Source: Minisyncoccota bacterium (GTDB lineage Bacteria > Patescibacteriota > Minisyncoccia > Phycocordibacterales > Phycocordibacteraceae). From it: a DNA stretch of 64,000 bases. The notes beneath the pieces are model-generated. The model worked only from the letters and a program-made list of their open reading frames with translations, searched no databases and was not told the DNA's origin. Location: assembly GCA_036399335.1 (NCBI GenBank), contig DASWNF010000014.1:209642-273641 (forward strand), in the 5' to 3' direction. Below are positions 3,962 through 59,365 of this stretch, piece by piece. The translations under genes and the position numbers were made by a program. The number at the start of each line of letters is the position of its first letter. Within the stretch, counting starts at the first letter, position 1.

Positions 3962-4145
3962 AGTACGGCTGCAGAGCTTGGCCAGAATCGGACTCGCGGT
4001 ATACTCTTTCCGGAGCCGCCGATTCGAAAGTCAACTTGCTCAATTCTAGGGAGTCTCATACGAGACGGCGCGAGCTTCGGCTCTACCGACGTCCTGCGGA
4101 CACCCACGTGGCACATAAAAGTTGCCACACGAAGGCGGCTCTAAC

Positions 4146-4196: not shown

Positions 4197-4550
4197 ATGA
4201 GACTTGCGTGGCTCTTCCTCGCCCTCGTGCTTGCGGCACTTCTCGCCGGCGTGCATACCTATGCGCTTACGAACTTCTGGTATTGGTATTTCCCTTGGCT
4301 CGACGTCCCCGTCCACTTCCTTGGCGGCGCCTTCATGGGAGCGGCCGTCGTCGGGGTGCTCGGGACGTATCGGCCCAAGATCTTCCTCCTCACCGTTGCC
4401 GCCGGCGCTATCGGATGGGAGCTTTTTGAGCTCGCCATCAATATCGGGCGGGAGTCGAATTTCATACTTGATACGTCGCTCGACCTGCTCATGGATGCGC
4501 TCGGCATAACGGCAACCTACTTGGCTGCCCGGCTTACCTTATGGCGCTAA
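4197..4550 (+). CDS. small integral membrane protein (VanZ-like?)
   Basis: 3-4 predicted TM helices; start at ATG 4197 (MRLAWLF) after terminator. Confidence 0.4.
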   Translation: MRLAWLFLALVLAALLAGVHTYALTNFWYWYFPWLDVPVHFLGGAFMGAAVVGVLGTYRPKIFLLTVAAGAIGWELFELAINIGRESNFILDTSLDLLMDALGITATYLAARLTLWR

Positions 4551-15621: not shown

Positions 15622-15876
15622 CAAAATAGAAAACCACCCGAAGGCGGTTCTCTAATGTCCATATGTCTCCATATAGTTCTATATCGGTGGACACCCTGTC
15701 GGAAATTTGGAACCAGCTCGAAAGCTATGTTTTGCGCTCGTACGAACTGATACGCAACGCAGGGATGCTAGCTATTCCCAAGGAAAGTGCGGCGTAAGGG
15801 GTCACATGTTGGTAATAGAACCTACTAATATATCTAACAAAAGCCCCAGACAGAGTCCGGGGCCAAGGTAGTTTGT

Positions 15877-15920
15877 TTCTGTTGCCAAGCGGTCTACCAT
15901 CCGCTCCGAATCTTATTCAA
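15877..15920. repeat. 44-nt direct repeat copy 1 (ttctgttgccaagcgg-loop-ccgctccgaaNcttattca)
   Basis: near-identical to 16217..16260 except central loop and 2 flanking nt; contains short GCGG/CCGC hairpin. Confidence 0.8.
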
Positions 15921-15933
15921 ACGGTCCTACCGC

Positions 15934-16086
15934 TTAGCGCTTGGGGCGCTGCGCGGGCGGACGGGGCTGGGAAACCCCGGCCGAACCGGTATTGGCTCCG
16001 GCCATGCTCTCACCTCCTTTCTGATCGATTGAGGGACGGGGATTGGAGACCCCCGCAGAACCAACATTCACTCCTGACACGTACAT
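15934..16086 (-). CDS. small Gly/Ser/Pro-rich peptide, internally tandem-duplicated (candidate precursor peptide)
   Basis: minus-strand ORF MYVSGVNVGSAGVSNPRPSIDQKGGESMAGANTGSAGVSQPRPPAQRPKR (50 aa; below the 60-aa ORF-track cutoff). Two Shine-Dalgarno GGAGGTG boxes: one spaced 8 nt before an in-frame GTG three codons into the ORF (ATG 16084 itself has only a 2-nt spacer), one 6 nt before the internal ATG at 16005. Halves align at nucleotide level with differences concentrated at 3rd codon positions of this frame. Confidence 0.5.
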   Translation of the reverse strand: MYVSGVNVGSAGVSNPRPSIDQKGGESMAGANTGSAGVSQPRPPAQRPKR

Positions 16087-16216
16087 CACCTCCTCTCTCG
16101 TCAGACGGTTAAAGAACTAATCTCGATGAGACCTCGACGAATCAAGGGCTCAATAGAGGGGAGAAGTGGTGCTTCTCCCAGTAGTTTTATTTCCACCTCC
16201 TTTCGGATTGGGAAAC

Positions 16217-16260
16217 TTCTGTTGCCAAGCGGGATTGCACCCGCTCCGAAGCTTATTCAG
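16217..16260. repeat. 44-nt direct repeat copy 2
   Basis: see copy 1; lies between rSAM stop (16277) and peptide ORF. Confidence 0.8.
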
Positions 16261-16276
16261 CTCCGCTCCTCCTCGG

Positions 16277-17437
16277 TTACCCGAGGAATCGCTGCACAGT
16301 AGCCAACTCAGCGCTGAATGACTCCTTTCCGATTGCTCTCCACCACTTCTCAGCGGTTTCTGCGAATACGGTTGGGACGTCCAGTTCCTCGGACACTCGC
16401 GCGATGCTGAAGTGGGAAAGGTCGTTGCCTTTCGCATCCGTACCCCGCTGGAGGTCTTCCAGCGAATGTTGGATGCAGAAGGGAACCCTCCACCAACCGT
16501 CAGCATCAACAACGAGCGTCTCGTTGACCTGCAGAGATTTCGGATAGAAGTACAGCGGGATGCCCACATCGAGTACGATGGCGTTATATTCGACCATCGC
16601 GTTCGACAGAGCCTTCCGTGCCGTCTCCTTACCGAGAATCTGTAGCAGGACAACGAAGTCTGCGAGGGAGTACGTCCGGAGAAATACCGGACGCTCCCAC
16701 GTGGACCCAAGAAGCTGTTCCAGCGCCTTCGTTAGCTCCCGCTCATCCGCGCGCATGTGCTCGAGTCCAGGCCTCAACGACATAGTCGTCAGATGCCATT
16801 CATCGACCAGGGGAGCGAGCATTTCGCCCGTCTCCCGCACATCGTCGCAGTTGAGCGAGCTGAGCGTATAAAGCGACGTCACCTTCCCGGTTGGGCTTAC
16901 AAGCCGCCGAGCGTTGGTGAGTCCCTTCATCGCCCACGCGTAAGCCTGCTGGCTCGCGCGCTGTGCATTGTGGGTGCGTTCCGTCCCGTCCACCGATACG
17001 TCGAGCGTATCGATTTCAAGGCCTTCCCGCTCACAGAGCGACAGCATCGCCGGGGTCACGTATTGGCCGTTGTTAATGACCGATACGCTGTATCCGGCGC
17101 GCTTGATCGCTGCGAGGACCGGCACCTGATGCGGGAGCAGTTGCCTGCCCTCATGCACCAGGTGACCAGATCCTGTGAGCTGCTCGAGCACGGAGATCAG
17201 AACCTCCGCGCTGAGCCGTTCGGAGTATCCTTTCGGACCCTCGAACGGGAAGATGCAGTGCTCGCACTGCACGGCGCAACCACCACGTACGATCCACGAG
17301 AGAAGGGGAGGGATCTCCGAACGCAGCTGCGCCCGGATATGGTCTCCGAGATCTTCGCTGTGGACGACGGCGTGGAGCCAGGAGTCGATCGCCGTCCCAT
17401 TGGACGCCGACTCACTCGGGGTGGGGTCTTGGGTCAT
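16277..17437 (-). CDS. radical SAM domain protein
   Basis: CxxxCxxC cluster GGCAVQCEHC near N-terminus (aa ~53-60); 386 aa; no clear SPASM Cys cluster seen. Confidence 0.55.
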   Translation of the reverse strand: MTQDPTPSESASNGTAIDSWLHAVVHSEDLGDHIRAQLRSEIPPLLSWIVRGGCAVQCEHCIFPFEGPKGYSERLSAEVLISVLEQLTGSGHLVHEGRQLLPHQVPVLAAIKRAGYSVSVINNGQYVTPAMLSLCEREGLEIDTLDVSVDGTERTHNAQRASQQAYAWAMKGLTNARRLVSPTGKVTSLYTLSSLNCDDVRETGEMLAPLVDEWHLTTMSLRPGLEHMRADERELTKALEQLLGSTWERPVFLRTYSLADFVVLLQILGKETARKALSNAMVEYNAIVLDVGIPLYFYPKSLQVNETLVVDADGWWRVPFCIQHSLEDLQRGTDAKGNDLSHFSIARVSEELDVPTVFAETAEKWWRAIGKESFSAELATVQRFLG

Positions 17438-21138: not shown

Positions 21139-21363
21139 AATCATCAAGGTCGCGATGCGACTAAAACGCCTAAACCAAGGAGCGATCCGAGGCATGGCCA
21201 AATAAAAACCTACGCGAGCAGAAGCGGCCTCATAGGCTGGCTCTACTCGCGTAGGTCGGTGTCCCGAAAGGGCCTGGGTGATGTCCGAAAGGGTGTCATC
21301 GCCAGTTCTGTGGGGCCGCTTCTGTATCCAGACGGCCTCCTTACCAAAACCTACGCGAACCAT

Positions 21364-22014: not shown

Positions 22015-22535
22015 TCTGCGTGCACAAAAGTCGGAGGATCCTAGAAAGTCCGACAGGGGAAAACTATTTTTGCGAACCTAGTAAATAGGCCATGAAAAGC
22101 ACACTTTAGAATAGTTTTCCCCCTTAAATCGGGTTTTCTGGAAAAGGAGTTTTGTGCACCTTTGCGCCCTGTCTGTAGCCTCGATATAATGGTCGAGGAA
22201 ACAACAAAATAATCGAAAGTAATCGATATCTGAAAGCTGATTGGTCCGTAAGGACTGACGCCGATCTGCGTAAAGTAACCCCAAGCCCGTTCGTCTTAGT
22301 TTCTGGGGGGCCGCTTCTACAGCAAGGGTTCTCCAGCTTACCCACTTGCTGGTATCGATTAGTCGTACTGCGCCTTTGGCAGTAAGGCTGAGTGTGAAGC
22401 CTCAGGATTGATCGCGACTGCATATGCAGCCGTGCTTAATCCCGAGGCTTTTCGCGTTTCTGTCAGCCGGTATTTGCCCCTCTTCTGTTGGGTATGGTCA
22501 ACCGGCTGACCTTATCCAACAGAAGGAGGACAAAC

Positions 22536-22721
22536 ATGTTAACGGTTGAAGAATGTAAGAGGCTTATAGGAGCACCAAGCATGCCTGACGGCGAAGTTAA
22601 GCGAATCAGAGAGCTGTTGTACGCCTTTGTGGAAAGAACGCTGGACTATGTAGATGAAACCGGCATGTTTGTCTCTGAAAAGCCGGTATGTCAAACAAAC
22701 ACAATGAACACAGTAAAGTAA
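22536..22721 (+). CDS. small protein upstream of and overlapping recombinase (possible accessory/RDF-like, speculative)
   Basis: strong SD gaaggagg 7 nt before ATG 22536; 61 aa; overlaps recombinase start by 34 nt. Confidence 0.35.
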   Translation: MLTVEECKRLIGAPSMPDGEVKRIRELLYAFVERTLDYVDETGMFVSEKPVCQTNTMNTVK

Positions 22722-24340
22722 TAGCCTTAATCTATTGCAGGGTCTCATCTGAGCGCCAAGCAAAGGAAGGGCACGGACTAGATAGCCAGGAACACAGATG
22801 CCGGGCGTATGCTGATACGAAGGATTATCACGTTGAGGAAGTATTCAGAGACAGCGCAAGCGGAGGAGGGGACTTTATGAACCGTCCCGCAATGCAAGAA
22901 ATGCTGCATTACATCGATAAGCATCCGCACAAAAACTACACGGTTATCTTCGACGATCTGAAGAGGTTTGCTCGAGACACTGTGTTTCACCTCAAGCTGC
23001 GTGCTGCGCTACAGATGCGCAACGTGAAGCCGGAATGTCTAAACTACGTGTTCGACGATTCCCCGGAGGGAACCTTCGTAGAAACGATATTCGCGGCACA
23101 AGGTCAACTAGAGCGTGAACAAAATAGGCGACAGGTAATTCAAAAGCAGAAGGCGCGACTTGAGCAGGGTTACTGGCCTTTCTATCCGCCGCCAGGTTAC
23201 CAGCAAGTCAGAGAGGTTGCTCATGGAAAAGTCCTAAGGATTATTGAACCTGAGGCGAGTCTCATTCGAGAAGCGTTTGAGGGATTTGCATCTGATCGGT
23301 TCATGACTCAAGCTGATGTGGCTCGTTTTCTACAAGACTCTAATTACAACAAGGGTCGCCCAGTGTACGTAGAAGGCGTAAGACGACTCCTTAGAAGGGT
23401 AGTGTATGCCGGATACGTAGAGCGAGAGGAGTGGGAGGTCTCCAGGCGACCAGGTCAGCATAAGGGACTAGTCAGTATTGAAGTATTCCAGAAGGTGCAG
23501 GAGAAACTCGACGGTAAATGTAAAGTTCGATCGCGACTAAGCGACCGAATGGACTTCGCGTTACGAGGCCTGTTGCTCTGTGATTACTGCAACAAAACTC
23601 TCACAGGCAGCTGGAGTAGAGGTAGGAACAAAATGTATCGTTACTACCGCTGCAAGACGTCAACGTGTGTTCGCTTCAATAAGAGTGTTAATGGCGACTT
23701 CGTTGATAGAGAATTCAAGACCCTATTACGGTCAGCCGTACCACGTATTGAGTTGCTTGAGCTGGCAAAAAGAGTACTGATAGACCTCTGGGGCAAAAGA
23801 GTGAAGCTGTTGGATCAACGCAGAATAGAAGTAGAAAGGAAAATTGAGGAGTCGTCTCGACAGGTCGATCTTCTGACAACACGAATCACGAGAACAATGG
23901 ACGAGTCGCTTATATACGTCTATGAGCGTCAAATATTGAAGGCTAGAGACGATAGCATCGCCCTACAAGGGCAACTTAAAACGATTGGTCTGTCAGCGGC
24001 TCATATTGAAACCGCCCTCGAGGTGGTTACAAGTTATCTAAAAGATCCAGTAAGTACATGGGAAAATGGAGACTTAAAAGCAAAAAGACTAGTCTTCGGA
24101 CTAGTCTTTGCTGATAAGTTGGTCTTCCACCATAAAGATGGGTTTGAAACCGCACAAAAGCCGCTTATTACGGGGCTATTTGAGCAAATCTCTACCAAAG
24201 AATCACAGGATGTGGAGGTGGGGAGAGTTGAACTCCCGTCCAGCCTGGCTTTGAGAGCGATTCTACGACGCGTAGTCGGCATTGAAGATTCGGCAGGGGC
24301 ATCGGAATGCCGACGAAAACGTCCTTGCCTAGGTCCTTAA
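22688..24340 (+). CDS. large serine recombinase (phage-integrase type)
   Basis: N-terminal resolvase catalytic domain ALIYCRVSSERQ (catalytic Ser), recombinase domain, zinc-ribbon CDYC...YYRC, coiled coil; C-terminal ~128 nt overlap tmRNA 3' end on opposite strand. Confidence 0.85.
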   Translation: MSNKHNEHSKVIALIYCRVSSERQAKEGHGLDSQEHRCRAYADTKDYHVEEVFRDSASGGGDFMNRPAMQEMLHYIDKHPHKNYTVIFDDLKRFARDTVFHLKLRAALQMRNVKPECLNYVFDDSPEGTFVETIFAAQGQLEREQNRRQVIQKQKARLEQGYWPFYPPPGYQQVREVAHGKVLRIIEPEASLIREAFEGFASDRFMTQADVARFLQDSNYNKGRPVYVEGVRRLLRRVVYAGYVEREEWEVSRRPGQHKGLVSIEVFQKVQEKLDGKCKVRSRLSDRMDFALRGLLLCDYCNKTLTGSWSRGRNKMYRYYRCKTSTCVRFNKSVNGDFVDREFKTLLRSAVPRIELLELAKRVLIDLWGKRVKLLDQRRIEVERKIEESSRQVDLLTTRITRTMDESLIYVYERQILKARDDSIALQGQLKTIGLSAAHIETALEVVTSYLKDPVSTWENGDLKAKRLVFGLVFADKLVFHHKDGFETAQKPLITGLFEQISTKESQDVEVGRVELPSSLALRAILRRVVGIEDSAGASECRRKRPCLGP

Positions 24341-24639
24341 TTTAAGCGCGCTGCCCGGACATGCAGGCGCCGATCCCGTAGGAGATTCCGCCCTGACCTT
24401 CCGCTACGGGAACCGGGAAGGGGAGGACGTCGCTAAGCGAAGCGAGCTAAAAGCTCAAGCTTACGCGCTCGCGAACGCAAAGTTGAAACTGTTCTTCGAG
24501 AAATACGGAGAAACAGTGTTCTTTGCGCTTGCAACAGTGTTGTTTGCAAGTATTTGTAGTTGCGGGATTTAGATGGACAGCAACCTTCCATCGCGTCGCA
24601 CGTATCTCAAAGTACAGACCGTCAAAGCCGGTCACCCCC
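24213..24639 (-). ncRNA. ssrA: tmRNA (ssrA)
   Basis: 5' GGGGGUGACCGGCUUUGACGG (cf. E. coli GGGGCUGAUUCUGGAUUCGACGG); 3' GGACGGGAGUUCAACUCUCCC-CACCUCC-A (cf. E. coli GGACGCGGGUUCAACUCCCGC-CAGCUCC-ACCA); 7-bp acceptor with G3:U70; internal tag ORF GCA AAC AAC ... GCG UAA = ANNTVASAKNTVSPYFSKNSFNFAFASA; adjacent to smpB. Confidence 0.8.
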
Positions 24640-27836: not shown

Positions 27837-27912
27837 CCACCCTTAGCTCAGTTGGTTAGAGCTCCGAGCTTATACCTCGGCGGTCCTTGGTTCGAGTCCA
27901 AGAGGGTGGACC
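27837..27912 (+). tRNA. tRNA-Ile (anticodon UAU)
   Basis: cloverleaf folded by hand: acceptor CCACCCU/AGGGUGG, D-arm GCUC-AGUUGGUUA-GAGC, anticodon stem CCGAG/CUCGG with loop CUUAUAC (U33, UAU, A37), T-arm CUUGG-UUCGAGU-CCAAG. Confidence 0.7.
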
Positions 27913-51451: not shown

Positions 51452-52885
51452 ATGGCCAAACCTTTGAACGAACTCACCATTACCGAAGCGGCACAGGGCC
51501 TGCGTAGCAAGGCGTATTCCGTACGCGAACTGTGGGATACGTGCGCGGCTGCCGCCGTCGCGCGTAACGGGGAACTCAATGCCTACCTCGAACTTTTTGC
51601 CGCTGACGAAGACGCTATTGCAAAGGCGCAGGCGCGCATAGACGGGGGAGGGGACGGTGCGCCGCTGCTTTGCGGCATACCGCTCGCCATTAAGGACAAC
51701 CTCCTTATCGAGGGCCACATCGCGAGCGCCGCGTCCAAGATGCTGGGGAATTATGTCGCGCCGTACGATGCGACCGTTATCCGTAAACTGAAGGAAGCCG
51801 GCGCACTCTTCCTTGGGCGCACAAACATGGACGAGTTTGCCATGGGCAGCTCGACGGAGAATTCCGCATACGGACCGTCGAAGAACCCGTACGACGTACG
51901 CCGCGTCCCGGGCGGTTCCTCGGGCGGCTCCTCTTCCGCAGTCGCCGCGCACCTCGCGCTTGGCGCGCTCGGGACCGATACCGGCGGGTCTATCCGGCAG
52001 CCTGCAGCCCACTGCGGCCTGGTCGGCCTCAAGCCTACCTATGGTGCGGTCTCGAGGTACGGCGCTATCGCGCTTGGCTCCTCGCTTGACCAGATCGGCC
52101 CCCTTACGAAGTCCGTAGCGGACGCGAAGGCGCTCCACGAGGTCCTGTCGGGCCCTGATCCGCTCGACGCCACTACGCTGCCTGCCGGCACCTATCCGAG
52201 CGAGACTCTCCCTGCAAAGCTCCGTATCGGCGTGCCATACCACCTCCTTGAAGAAGGTTTGGACGCAGATGTCCGCGCGGCTTTTGATGCCACGCTTTCA
52301 AAGCTCGTGGCTGCCGGGCATACGCTTATTGATGTTGCGCTCCCGACGAGCCCATACGGCCTCCCTTCGTATTACGTCGTCATGCCGGCCGAAGCGTCGA
52401 CGAACCTCGCGCGCTACGACGGCATACGCTATGGCCATGCCGCACGGGGCACGACCTTGCTCGACGACTATGTGCAGTCGCGTAGCGAAGGCTTCGGCGA
52501 GGAGACGCAGCGCCGCATCCTTCTCGGAACCTTCGTACTTTCAAGCGGGTATATCGATGCGTACTACCGCAAGGCCGAGGCTGCGCGCGACGCACTCCGA
52601 GCCGAGTACGATGCGGCCTTTGCAGGCGTTGACGTCATCGCCTTCCCGACGACCCCGTCACCTGCGTTTAAGTTCGGAGAAAAGAGTGACCCTGTTTCCA
52701 TGTACCTCGAAGACATCTTTACCGTGACCGCAAACCTTACCGGCATGCCTGCGCTTTCCGTACCTATGGGCAGTGTTACGCGCGACGAGGTGTCGCTTCC
52801 TGTCGGTATCCATTTCACCGCGCCGCATGGCCGCGAAGACCTTCTGTTTACTATCGGCGCAGAAGTAACCGGCGAGACGCTATAA
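51452..52885 (+). CDS. gatA: Asp/Glu-tRNA amidotransferase subunit A
   Basis: amidase signature GGSSGGSSSAVAA, catalytic Ser-cisSer-Lys triad context. Confidence 0.9.
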   Translation: MAKPLNELTITEAAQGLRSKAYSVRELWDTCAAAAVARNGELNAYLELFAADEDAIAKAQARIDGGGDGAPLLCGIPLAIKDNLLIEGHIASAASKMLGNYVAPYDATVIRKLKEAGALFLGRTNMDEFAMGSSTENSAYGPSKNPYDVRRVPGGSSGGSSSAVAAHLALGALGTDTGGSIRQPAAHCGLVGLKPTYGAVSRYGAIALGSSLDQIGPLTKSVADAKALHEVLSGPDPLDATTLPAGTYPSETLPAKLRIGVPYHLLEEGLDADVRAAFDATLSKLVAAGHTLIDVALPTSPYGLPSYYVVMPAEASTNLARYDGIRYGHAARGTTLLDDYVQSRSEGFGEETQRRILLGTFVLSSGYIDAYYRKAEAARDALRAEYDAAFAGVDVIAFPTTPSPAFKFGEKSDPVSMYLEDIFTVTANLTGMPALSVPMGSVTRDEVSLPVGIHFTAPHGREDLLFTIGAEVTGETL

Positions 52886-52892
52886 TCAGGGG

Positions 52893-53486
52893 ATGGAAAC
52901 GACCGATTCGGGCATACACTTCCTGAACCTCTCCTATTTCTTCCGTGCCATCTACGAGTTCATTTTCGGTGCGGGTGATGTAAGCTCAAGCTTTTCCGGA
53001 TTCCTCGCCTTCCTCGGCCAGCTCTGGATTGTCCTTACCATTCTCGCCGTACTCATCTCGCTCGCGGCCATCTGGGTCATGGTGTACTCGACGATGCGTA
53101 TCTTCCAGGTGCGGCAGGAAGAGGCACCGCTTTATGCAACCATCTCCCAGTACGATGAGCATGAGCGCCTTGAGACCTCGCGCTGGACGTACATCAAAGA
53201 GCTCATCCAAGGGACGAACGAGGCGAGTTGGCGCCAGGCCATCATCGAAGCCGACATCATTCTTGATGAGATGCTGACCCGGCTTGGCTACGTCGGCACG
53301 TCGGTAGGGGAGAAACTGCGGCAGGCAAACCCTACCCACTTCCAGACCTTGAATAACGCCTGGGAGGCGCACCGGGTGCGTAACCAAATCGCCCATGAAG
53401 GCTCCGCGTTTGAGCTGACCGACCGCCTCGCTTACCGAACCATCGCAAACTACGAGGCTGTGTTCCGCGAGCACGAGGAGCTTTAG
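52893..53486 (+). CDS. hypothetical membrane protein
   Basis: 2 TM; TATAAT + 6 nt + ATG. Confidence 0.45.
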   Translation: METTDSGIHFLNLSYFFRAIYEFIFGAGDVSSSFSGFLAFLGQLWIVLTILAVLISLAAIWVMVYSTMRIFQVRQEEAPLYATISQYDEHERLETSRWTYIKELIQGTNEASWRQAIIEADIILDEMLTRLGYVGTSVGEKLRQANPTHFQTLNNAWEAHRVRNQIAHEGSAFELTDRLAYRTIANYEAVFREHEEL

Positions 53487-53589
53487 GGGTACCTAGCAAC
53501 CTTTCTCCGACCCCAAAACACATACGGGTGACTTGCATTCCGCATGAATCGGCGTATTATATGGTTAACGGGCAATTAAGGGCGTATAT

Positions 53590-53662
53590 AGCGGGGTAGA
53601 GGAGAGGTACCTCGGGAGGCTCATAACCTCCAGACGCCGGTTCGATTCCGGCCCCCGCAACA
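53590..53662 (+). tRNA. tRNA with CAU anticodon (Met / initiator / Ile2 unresolved)
   Basis: hand fold: acceptor AGCGGGG/CCCCGCA with 1:72 A-A mismatch, D GAGG-AGAGGUA-CCUC, anticodon GGAGG-CUCAUAA-CCUCC, T GCCGG-UUCGAUU-CCGGC. Confidence 0.55.
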
Positions 53663-53757
53663 AGGTAGTGCGGCCTGCACCAAAGACCGATACGGATGAA
53701 ATGCACAGAAGCCGCTTACTAGCGCCTTCTGTGCCATGTAAAAGCTATACTAGGCGC

Positions 53758-54096
53758 ATGACGTTGGATTCATTCTTTGCGACATATGACTCACTCACTT
53801 CTATAAATATCATGGAAGAGATAGGGGTTCGCCAGTCAATACAGAACATTGCCTTCCATGTAATTTTTCTTGTCTTGTGGTCAGGGATAGCGCTGCTGCT
53901 TGTTGACGCTTACAGGACCGGAAAGGTCAAAAGAATGCGACATGTATATCAGGGTCACTCGAAAGAGTATTGGGCGAACCCTTACTGGGATAAAAAGCAG
54001 AATCCGGTTTCGTTCGGGGTTTCGGTCGCGGGGTACATTGTTATTCTTATCCTCTTTACGCTTATTATCTTCCTTCCCCTACTTCAAGCGCTATAG
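53758..54096 (+). CDS. small membrane protein
   Basis: 2 TM; lower GC; start uncertain. Confidence 0.35.
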   Translation: MTLDSFFATYDSLTSINIMEEIGVRQSIQNIAFHVIFLVLWSGIALLLVDAYRTGKVKRMRHVYQGHSKEYWANPYWDKKQNPVSFGVSVAGYIVILILFTLIIFLPLLQAL

Positions 54097-54236
54097 GGTT
54101 CAAGACCGACACGAGCAACACGATTCGGAGACATACCAGCAGGTGTAAACATGGTTCCGTTCCGCCAAGGGTTACAAGTACAACAGGCGCTGAAGGCGTC
54201 TTTTGTGCTGGTCAGGTCAAGCTATACTGTAGTTGA

Positions 54237-54953
54237 ATGACCAGAAACAAAATCCTCTTTGCCATCGCACTCGTAGTCATTGGTACGCTTGTATACTTTT
54301 TTGCAGGAAGTCACGATTCTTCTCCGGCTCCTTCCCCGAACCATTTGAGCATTACTACTACTGCAGGAAACTACGGATTGTTTATAGACAACGATGATAA
54401 TGTCTATTTCTCCACCCAAGATGCAAACGTACGGAACATCATAAAAACTTATCTTACAGAGCAGAAAAACTACCCCTATGAAATAACTGATGCCGAAAAC
54501 TACGGGCGCTCGCTCGTGTTCTATTACACCAAGGATGTATTCATCTGGGCGTCGAGGAGCGACTGGGCCGACAGGAACAGCCTAACGTCATTCAGTATGC
54601 GCGACATGAAGACCGGGGAAGATATCGGCGATTGTGGAATATACAAGGAAGCTGGTTTATACAAAGATGAAAACCTATTGCTTTCCGCGACGATTATAGA
54701 TACTGGTTACGATATAAAGCAGGGCGTATGTCTTTATGAAAGGGGAGCACCCAATTTCACGTATGTTGATCTTACTCCAGAATTGGTTTCCTCAGAAACA
54801 CTCTTTAACGATCCAGAGGGTCGGAATCTTCGAGCGAACATCAAAGACGTCAATGTAGATAAAAGAACTCTCGTTGTAGATGTGTACGATGAGGAGAAGA
54901 AAGACGCAGAAGGCAACCACCCCTACAAACGCAGTATTGAAGTTTCCTATTAA
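54237..54953 (+). CDS. hypothetical secreted/lipoprotein-like protein (low GC)
   Basis: signal anchor; ~43% GC. Confidence 0.5.
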   Translation: MTRNKILFAIALVVIGTLVYFFAGSHDSSPAPSPNHLSITTTAGNYGLFIDNDDNVYFSTQDANVRNIIKTYLTEQKNYPYEITDAENYGRSLVFYYTKDVFIWASRSDWADRNSLTSFSMRDMKTGEDIGDCGIYKEAGLYKDENLLLSATIIDTGYDIKQGVCLYERGAPNFTYVDLTPELVSSETLFNDPEGRNLRANIKDVNVDKRTLVVDVYDEEKKDAEGNHPYKRSIEVSY

Positions 54954-55098
54954 GAACCAGTGCCTTTCCGCCTGGCCTATTCCCCTCACAAAAATCGCGA
55001 AAGTGGCTTAGATCTACTCAAAGCCCGAGGGAATAAGAAAGCGCTCCCAAAGAACCCTTAGAACCTCTCGATTCCCGGGTACAAGCTATACTTTCTCT

Positions 55099-56268
55099 GT
55101 GACTACAATTGTTTCCACCGCCCAGATGAAGCGTTACTACCTCTACAACTTCCTCGTGAGTTCAGCGAGCATCACCGGCGGACACTTCACCATGGTGTAT
55201 TTCTACCTCCATGGATTCTCCATTACAGCCATTATCACTGCAGTCCTTACCTACGGTTTGACGTGCCTCGCAATCCTAAAGCCGGTCGGTATATTAATAG
55301 AACGCCTTGGCCCGCAGACAACATTCAGGCTCCATGCCGTGGCAGAGGTAGCAAAATATTTAGCGCTCATTTCAATCTTCCTATTTCCTCTGTGGGACTA
55401 TCAGTTCTTTCTGCTAATCCAGTTCTTCAATGCCTTCAGGGTAATGATGAGCCGTATTCCGCTCACCGCCTACTTCTCCGCGTACGGAGATAACCTCCAT
55501 CGGGGTTCGCAGATCGGCCTCACGAATAACGTCCAGGTTGCGGCTACGGTTATCGTACCCGCTCTTGCGGGAGCTCTCATTGAGGATACCGGCCTCGTCC
55601 TCATCTCGACCATCAGCCTTGTGGTGAATCTTATTGCCATATCGGTGCTTAAGTTCGACGGTAGCGTGAGAGTACGGAACCCTGTGCGCTTTAAGAGACT
55701 TATGCAAGCAGTACCCCGACCCTTCACTCGGGCATTCTTCGTGGGCCACTTCCCGTACCCGTTTGTTGCCGATCTTGTATCGATCTATATAGCTGTTGTC
55801 TTCGGTTCCTTCACGGTACTCGGCCTCTTCATCGCGCTCCGTACCGCTGTGTCCGTGCTCCTTAACTATGTCGTGGGGCGCATGACGGACGCGCACCGCG
55901 CACGCAGGTTCTTCTTCTGGGGAGCGCTTGTAAGTTCGACCTTCTGGATGTTCTTGCCATTCATACAAGATGCATGGGCAATCGTCCTACTCCAATTCAC
56001 CCTTGGTCTCGCTGGCCTCGTTACCTCGATTCCTTTCGAGGGGGCGTATCACAACGCCGCAAAGGAAGCTGACAAGCCACTCGAGTTTGCTGTTTGGAGA
56101 GAGGTAGCGCTTCAGTCCGGCATGGTCCTCGGCTGCATTCTGTTCATATTCCTTCTCGAATCTGGGTTGGTTGCGGACTGGCGAATGCTCCTGCCGCTTG
56201 GCGCGATTTCGGCGTTCGCCATGCTATTTGCATTGCCCTATATAAGGCACGTCGATACGGTTAAGTGA
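55099..56268 (+). CDS. MFS-type transporter
   Basis: ~12 TM, MFS-like. Confidence 0.5.
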   Translation: MTTIVSTAQMKRYYLYNFLVSSASITGGHFTMVYFYLHGFSITAIITAVLTYGLTCLAILKPVGILIERLGPQTTFRLHAVAEVAKYLALISIFLFPLWDYQFFLLIQFFNAFRVMMSRIPLTAYFSAYGDNLHRGSQIGLTNNVQVAATVIVPALAGALIEDTGLVLISTISLVVNLIAISVLKFDGSVRVRNPVRFKRLMQAVPRPFTRAFFVGHFPYPFVADLVSIYIAVVFGSFTVLGLFIALRTAVSVLLNYVVGRMTDAHRARRFFFWGALVSSTFWMFLPFIQDAWAIVLLQFTLGLAGLVTSIPFEGAYHNAAKEADKPLEFAVWREVALQSGMVLGCILFIFLLESGLVADWRMLLPLGAISAFAMLFALPYIRHVDTVK

Positions 56269-56414
56269 CGAGTGGGTGATTAGCTCAAACAAAATATCTC
56301 AGACGCGTACCTCGCCTCAAAGAGGCTCTCTAGTTTTGTTCCTGAATCCCTCGTCACATGGTGCAAAAAGACGCTAAGACGCTTTTGCGGTTCGGCCCAA
56401 GTTATACTTTAGCC

Positions 56415-56900
56415 ATGAATGGAAGTGCAGCCGAGAAACTCCTCAACCCGAATTTGTATCAGGTTTTTCTCATGGCCAACCCGTCGCGGCTTTTGGTTTT
56501 CACACACCCATGGTTCGTGGTGAACCGTAAGGGGGTTGTGTCTCGGTGGGCTATCGGCCGCGCTGCTGTCAACGGAAATCCTCGCTTCGGCTGGGTCAAT
56601 AAAGACGCGCTTCCACCATTCTCCGGCGTTCCGCTGCTCTTGTTCCTCGGGCTGCGCAAGCCCGCATGGAAAGGAAGGCTTCTCGGCTACACGGAAGGAG
56701 GCGAAGGTTCTCTCGCCGCGCAAATGGCTGACTGCATTGAGAACTCGAAGGACACGTACCCGTACCGCGATAGGTATGTGCCTTCGGGACCAAACTGCAA
56801 CACCTACATCCAGTGGGTTCTTGCCCAATTTCCAGATGCAGGATTAAAACTGCCGTGGAATGCGGTGGGGAAAGGGTATAAGGCACAATCTTCATTATGA
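56415..56900 (+). CDS. hypothetical protein
   Basis: start moved to ATG 56415 directly after CAAGTTATACT motif. Confidence 0.4.
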   Translation: MNGSAAEKLLNPNLYQVFLMANPSRLLVFTHPWFVVNRKGVVSRWAIGRAAVNGNPRFGWVNKDALPPFSGVPLLLFLGLRKPAWKGRLLGYTEGGEGSLAAQMADCIENSKDTYPYRDRYVPSGPNCNTYIQWVLAQFPDAGLKLPWNAVGKGYKAQSSL

Positions 56901-57074
56901 AAACCTTCACTAATGAACTTGGAAATAAGATCATCATTGAGACAGTCGAGAAGGTCATCAATGGCATAGACGGCATCTTAATCTGCATAGAGGGACCTGC
57001 GTCCAAGACTGAGATCCATGTTACGCGGATGGAAGCAAAAGTCCTTCTAGATCAACTGAACTCGGTCCTAATCT
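56898..57074 (+). CDS. small hypothetical protein (58 aa, below ORF-track cutoff)
   Basis: MKTFTNELGNKIIIETVEKVINGIDGILICIEGPASKTEIHVTRMEAKVLLDQLNSVLI; ATGA overlap with upstream stop. Confidence 0.35.
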
Positions 57075-57143
57075 AATTGATGGCTAGGTCCTGCCGTATA
57101 CGACCAGCTAAGGAGCGGCGGCAGGCCAAGTTATACTTCGAAC

Positions 57144-57617
57144 ATGCTTACTGAGCTGCAGAAAGAAGTACTTATATACCTAATCCGCTCCCTAGAGGAG
57201 AGCGGCGTTGAATTCCAGGTGAGTGGAGGGCTTGCGGCGATGGCGTATGGGGCACGGCGACCGCTCTATGACATCGACCTGGAAATTTATAAGAAGGACG
57301 TCGAAAAAGTACGGAACCTCTTTAAGGACTACATTACCGAAGACTGGAACCATTTGGCCGAGGGTCCGGAAGACCAGTTCGACCTCTGGATGATGACACT
57401 TAGCGTGCGCGGAGTGCCGGTCGACATAAATCAGGTAGAAGGAAGCCGCGTCAGGCCCGTCGGAGGAGCATGGGTGCCGCAGCCGGAAACAATGCACCCC
57501 CAGCTTTTGGAATTTGAAGGCATAAAACTTCCTGTCCAAGACAAGGACGAGCTCATTGGGTACAAGCGTATCTTGGCCAGGGACACTGACCTAGAAGACG
57601 TAGACCAAATAACATAG
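57144..57617 (+). CDS. nucleotidyltransferase-fold protein (antibiotic-NTase-like?)
   Basis: hG[GS]x9-13DhD motif VSGGLAAMAYGARRPLYDIDLEI. Confidence 0.45.
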   Translation: MLTELQKEVLIYLIRSLEESGVEFQVSGGLAAMAYGARRPLYDIDLEIYKKDVEKVRNLFKDYITEDWNHLAEGPEDQFDLWMMTLSVRGVPVDINQVEGSRVRPVGGAWVPQPETMHPQLLEFEGIKLPVQDKDELIGYKRILARDTDLEDVDQIT

Positions 57618-57619
57618 GT

Positions 57620-59365
57620 ATGACCCCGCCACTGCCTAAGACACCATTGCGCTTCTTTCTAGCCATCAACCGGAAAGATTTTCCGTTGATGACCCTGAAC
57701 CTCATCCTCTACGGGATGGGCGGGGCGTCACTCGTCGTTTTCTCGTACCTGCTCGGGGAGGTGATCGATGGCCTCACCAGCGGGGTTACGGCGTCCTTGC
57801 CCACACTCCTATGGCTCATGTTCGGGACCATCATCTGGTATACGTTGAGCTACCGTCTCGGGCACGTGTGCGAGGTCATCGTACGTTCCCGGCTCCGGAG
57901 CCGTACGAAGAAAACATTATTTAGGCACACTAACTCGCTCTCCTTCGGCTATTTTGCTGAACGGTTCGCGGGAGAGATAGCGCATAAGGTGGCCATATGT
58001 GCGGATGCCTTCGAGCGGATGTTCTTGGTCATAAGCAACAATATACTTGAGGACACCGTACTCCTTTTGCTTTCTGCAGCGGTACTAGGCAGCATCAACC
58101 CTTGGTATGGTGTCTTCTTGCTCGTATGGGCGGCCGTAGTCGTGGGCGGAGTGACGTTCTTTGCCCGACGGATGGATGCGCGCGCCGGGCACTATGCCTC
58201 GTCTGAGACGCGTACTTCCGGCGCGCTCGTAGACGTATATGCGAACATCGGCGCCGTAAAGGTGTATGGAAAGTCCGAGAACGAGGGAGTCTACAAGCAG
58301 ATTGAGGCGGAGGCAGAGGCGCTTAGATCCCTCGGGAAATGGGAAGTGCTTATGTATGCCTTTGCTGACTTCGCACTCATCACGATGGTCGCGGGGCTCA
58401 TGGTCATAAGCGTGCTGCTTTATAGCAGCGCACTGGTGACGATAGGTGCCCTTGTTACCGTCACCGGTGTGGGTTTCCGTTTATACGGCTCAATATGGGA
58501 TATCGGCCCGCGCCTGAGCGAACTGATCCGCTATCGCGGTGAAGCGCGCCAGAACCTGAGCGACTTGATGGTGGCCCCGTCCGTAGTGGACGGGGAGCAC
58601 GCGCCCCATGCGACACACGAGAAGGTCGAGGTGGAGTATCGGGATGTCCGGTTCGCGTACGCGCCCGGCCGGACGATACTCGACGGGCTGTCCCTCACCG
58701 TGCATCCCGGCGAGAAGCTCGGTATCGTCGGCCTTTCGGGTGCGGGTAAGACGACCTTCGCTAATTTGTTGCTACGCTTCTTTGACGTACAGGAAGGCGG
58801 AATTTATGTTAACGGACAAGACATTCGGGAATGTACGCAGGAATTCCATCGGTCCCACATCTCGTACGTTTCGCAGGACACGTCTTTGTTCCACGCGTCT
58901 ATTGCTGAGAACATCGCCTACGGCGCGACGGCAGTCTCAAGGGAAGACATCGAGCGCGCCGCCACGCTCGCCTATGCCACTGAGTTCATCGAAGCGCTGC
59001 CACAGAAGTACGAAAGCATTGTGGGCGAAAGGGGAGTCAAACTTTCGGGCGGCCAGCGCCAGCGCATTACCATAGCCAGGGCATTGCTCGCCGACCGGCC
59101 CCTCTTCCTGCTCGACGAGGCTACGAGCGCACTCGACAGCGACAGCGAACAGAAGATACAGAAAGGGCTCGCGCTGCTTATGGAGAACAAGACGGTCATT
59201 GCCATCGCTCACCGCCTCTCGACCCTCGCACATATGGACCGGATTATTTTCATGGAAGCCGGCAAGATTATCGAAAGCGGTTCTCATGAAGAACTGTTGG
59301 CACAAAATGGCGCGTATGCGCAGCTCTGGCATATGCAGGCGGGCGGCTTCCTGCCGTCGCACTAG
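57620..59365 (+). CDS. ABC transporter, fused permease/ATP-binding exporter (MsbA-like)
   Basis: 6 TM + Walker A GLSGAGKTT, signature LSGGQRQR, Walker B LLDEATSALD. Confidence 0.85.
   Translation: MTPPLPKTPLRFFLAINRKDFPLMTLNLILYGMGGASLVVFSYLLGEVIDGLTSGVTASLPTLLWLMFGTIIWYTLSYRLGHVCEVIVRSRLRSRTKKTLFRHTNSLSFGYFAERFAGEIAHKVAICADAFERMFLVISNNILEDTVLLLLSAAVLGSINPWYGVFLLVWAAVVVGGVTFFARRMDARAGHYASSETRTSGALVDVYANIGAVKVYGKSENEGVYKQIEAEAEALRSLGKWEVLMYAFADFALITMVAGLMVISVLLYSSALVTIGALVTVTGVGFRLYGSIWDIGPRLSELIRYRGEARQNLSDLMVAPSVVDGEHAPHATHEKVEVEYRDVRFAYAPGRTILDGLSLTVHPGEKLGIVGLSGAGKTTFANLLLRFFDVQEGGIYVNGQDIRECTQEFHRSHISYVSQDTSLFHASIAENIAYGATAVSREDIERAATLAYATEFIEALPQKYESIVGERGVKLSGGQRQRITIARALLADRPLFLLDEATSALDSDSEQKIQKGLALLMENKTVIAIAHRLSTLAHMDRIIFMEAGKIIESGSHEELLAQNGAYAQLWHMQAGGFLPSH

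Follow-up and report, generated by a model that had tools for sequence, protein, structure and literature searches.

Genes, boxes and hairpins downstream of tRNA-Met(CAT)

We analysed a 64-kb stretch of DNA (the window) in which five genes downstream of a tRNA-Met(CAT) gene are each preceded, at 6 or 8 nucleotides (nt), by the same short box, AAGYTATACT. We suggest that these boxes are -10 promoter elements placed for leaderless transcripts, which would probably be the normal mode of expression in this genome. By its GatA, LigA and GatC proteins the window, which comes from the metagenome-assembled genome of an uncultured bacterium, belongs to Patescibacteria/Parcubacteria (Paceibacterota); in JGI metagenome 3300034138 it corresponds to bases 2679-66678, in reverse, of a contig of 314,175 bp. 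The locus is 100% identical in three assemblies (JGI, ENA and Logan) from different samples, which leaves no variation for strain-level footprinting. A further 10 kb upstream on the same contig (locus L082) were used for a ribosomal-protein cluster, and an Rfam scan detected no rRNA gene in the window or in these additional 10 kb.

Boxes were defined as exact matches to AAGYTATACT, and chance was assessed by the expected count and by 100 shuffles. Five exact copies were found in the window against 0.08 expected, and none of the 100 shuffles reached five. All copies are on the plus strand inside 3.4 kb, and the gaps from boxes 1-5 to their start codons are 6, 8, 6, 6 and 6 nt, each start being in frame and opening a long open reading frame (ORF). 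No Shine-Dalgarno (SD)-like core was detected before any of the five starts. An earlier note on this DNA had reported such boxes, without an SD, ahead of the starts at 54237, 55099, 56415 and 57144; all four are real and lie 6-8 nt from their starts, and the copy at 53742, which that list did not hold, makes the fifth. The features of the locus are collected in Table 1 along with those of a second stretch of the window discussed below.

Table 1. Positions of the boxes, genes and hairpins of the tRNA-Met(CAT) locus, and of the SD-led genes elsewhere in the window (aa, amino acids; GC3, GC content at third codon positions).
Feature	Position	Strand	Remarks
tRNA-Met(CAT)	53590..53661	+	ARAGORN and Rfam; A1:A72 mismatch; marks where conserved synteny gives way to the low-GC variable stretch
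Strong hairpin between tRNA and box 1	53703..53734	+	Inverted repeat I4; 14-nt arms, 93% complementary; fold z = -3.0
Box 1, AAGCTATACT	53742-53751	+	-10 is TATACT 53746-53751; 6 nt before ATG 53758
Gene 1, predicted membrane protein, 112 aa	53758..54096	+	Start implied by the box; no family match above threshold
Terminator-like hairpin with T-rich tract TTTGTGCTGG	54185..54201	+	Between gene 1 and box 2; from folding
Box 2, AAGCTATACT	54219-54228	+	8 nt before ATG 54237; overlapping TACTGT at 6 nt
Gene 2, 238 aa	54237..54953	+	Hydrophobic N-terminus; no family match; GC3 = 0.48
Box 3, AAGCTATACT	55083-55092	+	6 nt before GTG 55099
Gene 3, MFS transporter, 389 aa from GTG 55099	55099..56268	+	Pfam MFS_1
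Box 4, AAGTTATACT	56399-56408	+	6 nt before ATG 56415; shares the 13-mer CCAAGTTATACTT with box 5 (repeat family D3)
Gene 4, DUF3750 protein, 161 aa	56415..56900	+	Pfam PF12570
59-aa ORF	56897..57076	+	ATG overlaps the gene 4 stop (ATGA); no box, no SD; translationally coupled by arrangement
Box 5, AAGTTATACT	57128-57137	+	6 nt before ATG 57144
Gene 5, 157 aa	57144..57617	+	Weak nucleotidyltransferase-like match, PF09970, below threshold
ABC exporter, 581 aa	57620..59365	+	Starts 2 nt past the gene 5 stop (coupled); GC3 0.70, genome-typical
Three AGGAGGTG	16011-16201	-	Within 200 nt, at a small repeated peptide ORF
Radical-SAM gene	16277-17437	-	AGGAG before start 17437; ENA call has identical start and end
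AGGAGG	22524-22529		6 nt before ATG 22536 (small ORF)
Large serine recombinase	22877-24340		AGGAGG 7 nt before start; ENA call has identical start and end

Permitting one mismatch in AAGYTATACT gave no further sites in the window, and the 11-mer CAAGYTATACT with up to two mismatches gave 13 matches in total, the five boxes counted, against 14.5 expected by chance. As near-variants do not exceed chance, the boxes form a discrete five-copy family and not the tail of a loose consensus. About 70 kb more of this genome were examined and contained no copy. A scan of 52800-58000 for a TTGACA-like -35 hexamer, 16-18 nt ahead of the -10, found none at the five boxes. All five have G at -14, preceded by a fixed C-A-A at -17 to -15, so that position -15 is A and not the T of the canonical extended -10 (TGn), and in four of the five a pyrimidine stands at -1. 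Two sub-pairs can be distinguished among the boxes by a longer identity, of 13-14 nt; the 13-mer CCAAGTTATACTT occurs twice (boxes 4 and 5), as does GTA[A/C]AAGCTATACT. Beyond these 13-14 nt the five upstream regions are unrelated.

Of the five box-implied starts, the ATG of gene 2 at 54237 is the first codon past the in-frame stop, and for gene 5 the JGI, ENA and Logan calls agree on 57144. For gene 3, homologues retain an extension of 6-9 residues ahead of the conserved KRYYLYNF, and GTG 55099 is the sole upstream candidate start; in 11 of 14 homologues the position of the alternative Met (55126) is occupied by Ile, Val or Leu. Most homologues of gene 4 are 144-168 aa long, and an identical protein is annotated with 161 aa by NCBI. 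The homologue N-termini support the box-implied starts 55099 and 56415, and homologues refute those called at 55126 and 56358.

Searches of the five genes against Pfam, NCBIfam and PADLOC returned just the MFS, the DUF3750 and the sub-threshold nucleotidyltransferase assignments, and no defence system. The 581-aa form of the ABC exporter is given by both the ENA and the Logan gene calls, and this gene is probably transcribed from box 5. The mismatch atop the acceptor stem of the tRNA is an initiator-like feature and suggests that this is the initiator, and the strong hairpin that follows is likely to be a terminator or a processing stem. A terminator in front of every box was considered and rejected; such hairpins are clear for boxes 1 and 2 alone, with a weaker stem at box 5 and nothing significant at boxes 3 and 4.

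Spacing of -10-like elements and use of Shine-Dalgarno sequences

To place the five boxes among the other genes of the window we scored a -10-like element as TAnnnT, and took 5-9 nt before the start codon as the leaderless distance. Among cases in which such an element precedes an ATG that starts an ORF of 60 codons or more, the spacing is 6 nt in 19 and 7 nt in 12, against about 5 for other spacings, and four control hexamers of similar composition gave a flat spacing histogram. The most frequent -10-like hexamer ahead of gene starts is TATACT; 11 of its 18 copies in the window have an ATG or GTG at 5-9 nt which opens an ORF of at least 50 codons.

Circularity was avoided by taking gene starts from the JGI calls (metagenome 3300034138), which were chosen independently of the box and comprise 50 operon-first and 31 internal genes. 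It should be noted that the backgrounds differ between the two signals, being 3.4% for TAnnnT at 5-9 nt (random positions) and 13.8% for SD 4-mer cores. TAnnnT was detected at leaderless distance for 19 of the 50 operon-first genes, against its background of 3.4%, and for 5 of the 31 internal genes, in 4 of which the match begins with the upstream stop codon (TAA/TAG). The motif is thus largely restricted to first genes, which argues for a promoter rather than a transcribed ribosome-binding motif. When we classified 74 genes of the window ourselves, about 38 showed a -10 box 5-9 nt from the start, about 22 were stop-start coupled, and five belonged to both groups.

The earlier note had read the position of -10 hexamers close to starts as a sign of leaderless translation throughout the genome. 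Run within the window, the count of the -10-to-start distance agrees with it in the excess at leaderless spacing and the peak at 6-7 nt, and together with the TATACT copies, the operon-first genes and the homologue N-termini it supports the leaderless reading, as far as this can be judged from sequence. Of the further starts given as examples (265, 10838, 25192, 30819, 32282, 32791 and 52893), all have a hexamer at 6-9 nt, although the one at 265 is TACTAT and not one of the three hexamers named (TATAAT, TATACT and TATAGT).

The other leaderless-type promoters of the window have G at -14 in 13 of 25 and G at -13 in 11 of 25. A pyrimidine at -1 and a purine at +1 are seen in 19 of these 25 sites, which fits initiation at the first base of the codon. 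In place of the prefix CAAG, the other TATACT promoters of the window carry CG or GG at -14/-13. One TATACT with a GG prefix, at 4000-4005, has no start codon at 5-9 nt, and the gene at 4197 has its own TGC-TACTCT box; ahead of that gene, the copy at 4000-4005 may promote a small RNA or a transcript with a leader. Boxes resembling -10 elements also end 7-11 nt before tRNA 5' ends, at 27837 and 35246 (minus strand) in the window and at L002:13384, L004:12081 and L004:12218 in other loci, and this spacing implies very short 5' leaders (0-5 nt) of the tRNA precursors.

SD 4-mer cores were found at 6 of the 50 first genes and 2 of the 31 internal genes, and SD use measured at the JGI starts is hence not enriched over background; SD matches at plausible starts are likewise few among the 74 window genes. 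In the S19-to-SecY ribosomal-protein cluster (L082:1705-9928), which lies just upstream of window position 1, none of the 17 genes (16 ribosomal-protein genes and secY) has an SD. Most of its internal genes start 1-13 nt past the previous stop (TAAgtATG, TAAtcttATG) or overlap it, and three genes come after gaps of more than 100 nt. The sequence context in this cluster is weakly T-rich, with T frequent at -1 and several genes in a cgtATG context. The same kind of scan gave 34-58% SD in Clostridium loci, so SDs are detected where present. An all-ORF -10 scan across loci was confounded by AT content and spurious ORFs and served solely as this positive control for SD detection. AGGAGG is over-represented in the window (59 copies against 31.5 expected) and is not avoided inside genes, which is consistent with a lack of selection against internal SD-like sequences.

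Canonical SDs are nevertheless present before a few genes, and these cluster in an accessory stretch at 15.9-24.3 kb adjoining the transfer-messenger RNA (tmRNA) gene. The GGAGG boxes that had been quoted earlier exist, namely the AGGAGG before the start at 22536 and three AGGAGGTG on the minus strand. The accompanying proposal that they mark foreign genes was upheld in part; the SD-led genes do cluster in the recombinase-bearing stretch by the tmRNA gene, and they fit import from an SD-using donor, but it could equally be that the host ribosome still reads an SD.

Within this stretch, the small ORF 3' of the radical-SAM gene (15873-16273, minus strand) carries two peptide units in tandem, SGVNVGSAGVSNPRPS and AGANTGSAGVSQPRPP, both with a perfect AAGGAGGTGA box ahead of them; a third such box is also present. 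A 45-nt repeat, TGAATAAGMTTCGGAGCGGRTG..CCGCTTGGCAACAGAA, lies by the peptide ORF at 16220-16262 and 15873-15920. The whole looks like a precursor locus of the type for ribosomally synthesised and post-translationally modified peptides (RiPPs), with canonical SDs in an otherwise SD-free genome. The adjacent low-GC segment 17647-24639 holds a TrmB-family regulator, a DNA methylase, an HATPase_c_3/Ymh protein, the SD-led small ORF at 22536 and the serine recombinase, along with an Rfam LOOT RNA match at 21167-21300 (51 bits). The recombinase gene and the tmRNA gene (24210-24639, minus strand) overlap at the 3' end of the latter, and the segment is probably an integrative element at ssrA.

Relatives and the low-GC stretch

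We compared the locus with its nearest relatives by GatA identity, the loci L001 (77%), L005 (71%) and L002 (70%), and with other Parcubacteria contigs that carry orthologues of genes 3 and 4. In L001, L002 and L005 the syntenic neighbour upstream of the tRNA, the gene at 52893, retains a -10 box at 5-7 nt from its ATG, and the gatC promoter is likewise kept. Among the DUF3750 orthologues, L084 has TGC-TATGCT-6 nt-ATG and L086 has TGG-TATGCT-6 nt-ATG, a paralogue has AAGT-TAGAAT-6 nt-ATG, and one orthologue is stop-start coupled. The nearest MFS orthologue (L092) has TACAGT 7 nt before its ATG, and other genes on the orthologue contigs show TGC-TATACT-6-ATG and TGTGG-TATACT-6-GTG. Leaderless-type promoters of relatives have G at -14 in 19 of 31, with T at -15 and -17, and are mostly TRTGn. 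The CAAG prefix was not seen in the promoters of the orthologues of the two genes (DUF3750 and MFS). As judged from these comparisons, the conserved feature is the position of the -10 box relative to the start codon and not the CAAG prefix.

The box does recur downstream of the orthologous tRNA in L002, where CAAGCTATACT lies 6 and 8 nt before two ATGs; CAAGCTATACT is also found in L005. The two L002 copies belong to cassettes of 60 nt, 100% identical to each other, each made of a terminator hairpin, GTTTTGAGAATC and AAGCTATACT, just downstream of the tRNA and 6 or 8 nt from the ATG of unrelated genes of 437 aa and 318 aa. A group I intron of about 220 nt (Rfam RF00028, 58.6 bits) interrupts the L002 tRNA-Met(CAT) itself (L002:13384-13675) in its anticodon loop; the exon halves of this tRNA match the window tRNA at 100% and 95%, ARAGORN missed it, and a TATACT box ends 7 nt before its 5' end. 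In L005 (2052-2320) AAGCTATACT is followed after 6 nt by an ATT opening a Phd/YefM-like antitoxin ORF (ISARDAKNRFGELLDSAQRAPVRITKNG...), in which there is no ATG, GTG or TTG between the in-frame stop and the ATT. This may be a gene that starts leaderless at a non-canonical codon, or one that has decayed.

The stretch that carries the five genes begins 81 nt past the tRNA and differs in composition from its surroundings. GC content at 54-58 kb is 0.485-0.53 versus about 0.60 elsewhere, in line with the low GC reported earlier for the genes after tRNA(CAU), and GC3 is 0.48-0.62 versus 0.70-0.80. The order ligA-gatC-gatA-g52893-tRNA is conserved in L001, L002 and L005, with an extra gene between g52893 and the tRNA in L002. 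Despite this synteny the flanks of the three relatives hold no homologues of the five genes, which makes the stretch strain-variable. It adjoins a tRNA gene, its composition is atypical and it is missing from relatives, as in a genomic island; no integrase, recombinase or mobile-element gene was found among its called genes, and no direct repeat of the tRNA 3' end (53640-53661), that is, no att-type repeat, was found downstream. We therefore do not regard a tRNA-bounded genomic island as proven, as the att repeat and the integrase are absent and the last unit couples into the ABC exporter of native composition, and use the term variable region instead.

Proposed leaderless expression and comparison with known systems

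The motif, its spacing and their statistics, the absence of SDs, the restriction to first genes and the box position kept in orthologues are observations; on their basis we consider it highly probable that the boxes are -10 elements placed for leaderless transcripts, that they are promoters of the housekeeping type, and that this is the normal mode of expression in the genome. CAAG(C/T)TATACT would then serve as the -10 element for a housekeeping-type RNA polymerase holoenzyme with no -35, where G-14 would occupy the G position of extended -10 and mycobacterial minimal promoters. Between the hexamer and the start codon lie 6 nt (once 8), which places the predicted transcription start on or next to the codon and leaves no room for a leader or an SD. 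Transcription would begin on, or 1-2 nt before, the A or G of the ATG or GTG, and the ribosome would load directly onto this 5'-terminal start codon. The locus would comprise five transcription units, three single genes, gene 4 with the 59-aa ORF, and gene 5 with the ABC exporter, the second gene of each two-gene unit being translated by stop-start coupling. For the genome as a whole, the proposed norm is that operon-first genes are leaderless, that internal genes are coupled, and that SDs are not used.

Several points weigh against this interpretation. The JGI starts differ for three of the five genes (53812, 55126 and 56358), and of these two were settled with homologues, while for gene 1 the box is the sole basis for 53758 against the JGI start 53812. 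A short leader is compatible with the sequence, and box 2 at 8 nt implies a leader of 1-2 nt. The strong canonical SDs before a few accessory genes suggest that SD-dependent initiation may still work in the host. Finally, the sharp conservation of CAAG, with no one-mismatch variants elsewhere, is unexplained by a plain -10 element. The boxes seem to behave like an extended -10 and yet differ from the canonical motif, and the shared prefix is most likely due to a promoter module that was copied locally, or else to selection favouring a strong variant.

Local copying as the origin of the five boxes, in which a short terminator-promoter cassette was duplicated or gene-converted downstream of the tRNA-Met and its functional core alone was retained, is a real possibility that nevertheless falls short of being probable. 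The two identical L002 cassettes before unrelated genes at the syntenic post-tRNA position, the two sub-pairs with longer identity (CCAAGTTATACTT and GTA[A/C]AAGCTATACT), the hairpins ahead of boxes 1, 2 and 5, and the confinement of all copies to the one locus speak for it. The upstream regions are unrelated past the shared 13-14 nt, however, and there is neither a mobile-element gene nor an att repeat. As copying concerns the origin of the boxes, it is compatible with their proposed function as leaderless promoters. More tentatively, we speculate that the lineage gave up SD initiation altogether, so that all first genes are leaderless, those with GTG included, and internal ones are reinitiated, with a terminator-CAAGYTATACT module spreading locally in addition; this stronger version we think doubtful. 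If true, the copied module would equip newly acquired genes with a ready leaderless promoter, as the identical 60-nt cassettes of L002 suggest.

The identity of the boxes could also indicate a distinct promoter class, in which an alternative sigma factor, a sigma-70 paralogue with altered region 3, or else a regulator (activator or repressor) reads CAAG (-17 to -14); the five units would then make up one regulon. All five promoters share an identical 10-11-mer of which no intermediates occur, the other TATACT promoters of the window have CG or GG at -14/-13, relatives are mostly TRTGn, CAAGCTATACT recurs in L002 and L005, and by eye the sequence has a AGTATACT-like partial dyad symmetry. Still, hexamer and spacing are those of the general promoters and G-14 is common to the general consensus, the orthologues of two genes have ordinary prefixes, no sigma factor or regulator gene lies within the locus, and the gene functions (MFS, DUF3750, nucleotidyltransferase-like and two unknowns) are unrelated, which together make such a class unlikely. 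The co-regulation by one sigma or promoter class suggested in the earlier note is accordingly not established; CAAG is confined to the locus and absent from orthologue promoters, and the identity of the boxes is what speaks for it. In our opinion a dedicated sigma factor is not needed to explain identical boxes.

That the mRNAs are leadered, with TATACT transcribed and acting as a non-SD ribosome-binding motif in the style of GeneMarkS-2 group B, or with the JGI starts being the true ones, appears very improbable: it could draw on the three deviating JGI calls, on the absence of SDs, which makes another signal imaginable, and on the weak T-rich/cgtATG context at internal ribosomal-protein genes, but the motif is mostly restricted to first genes and its few internal matches mostly begin with a stop codon, it conforms to the universal -10 (TAnnnT) extended by TGn or G-14, its 6-7 nt spacing peak equals the predicted -10 to +1 distance (PMC6028130), and two of the JGI starts are contradicted by homologues.

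Leaderless expression from -10 elements, if this preferred reading is correct, has consequences for annotation. Gene callers that expect a ribosome-binding site (RBS) would misplace starts in such genomes, as the three differing starts out of five here illustrate, with homologues backing the box in the two tested, and the -10-to-start distance would improve the annotation of genomes of the candidate phyla radiation (CPR). The very compact promoter (about 11 bp plus 6 nt) is a candidate for engineering and expression studies in CPR bacteria, whose cultivation is only now becoming possible. SD-led genes could then be used as a marker of DNA from outside the lineage. The arrangement would also offer a concrete answer to how translation starts in Parcubacteria that lack the anti-SD, with leaderless first genes and coupled internal genes, and this fits their reduced ribosomes.

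Among known promoters, the TRTGn '-16 region' of Gram-positive bacteria and the extended -10 come closest, along with the mycobacterial minimal promoter, which reportedly consists of the -10 and a G at -14 or -13. The boxes share with these the lack of a -35 and the G-14 directly upstream of the -10, and the relatives have T-17, T-15 and G-14. They differ from TGn/TRTG in the A at -15 and the fixed C-A-A at -17 to -15. The starts of internal genes, which lie between 10 nt ahead of the previous stop and 13 nt past it (ATGA, TAAnnATG) and have no SD, resemble established termination-reinitiation coupling, with the difference that coupling is known here from gene arrangement alone.

At the level of genomes, group C of GeneMarkS-2 is defined by a Pribnow box 6-8 nt from the start, in first genes only, and is common in Actinobacteria and Deinococcus-Thermus (PMC6028130). 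In Mycobacterium tuberculosis, an example of this group, about 60% of operons are predicted with RBS sites (PMC6028130). The present genome resembles group C in its Pribnow-type box 6-8 nt before operon-first starts, its lack of an SD and its predicted 5'-terminal ATG or GTG. It differs in that the host belongs to the Parcubacteria/CPR, that SDs are not enriched outside two accessory clusters, and that the commonest hexamer is TATACT.

Tsurumaki et al. (2022, RNA; PMC9297842) could detect an anti-SD motif in no more than 48% of Parcubacteria and suggested that SD helices do not form there; leaderless mRNAs are not discussed in that study. The window comes from the same group, and the predicted lack of SD helices matches the SD-free ribosomal-protein and other genes found here, from which we infer that the host probably belongs to the subgroup of Parcubacteria without an anti-SD. 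In the literature searched, no paper joined 'leaderless' and 'Parcubacteria', and the two joining 'leaderless' and 'Patescibacteria' do not deal with this. The proposed mechanism is of a known kind. A Parcubacterium in which it dominates seems not to have been described before, and such a case complements the loss of the anti-SD reported for the group.

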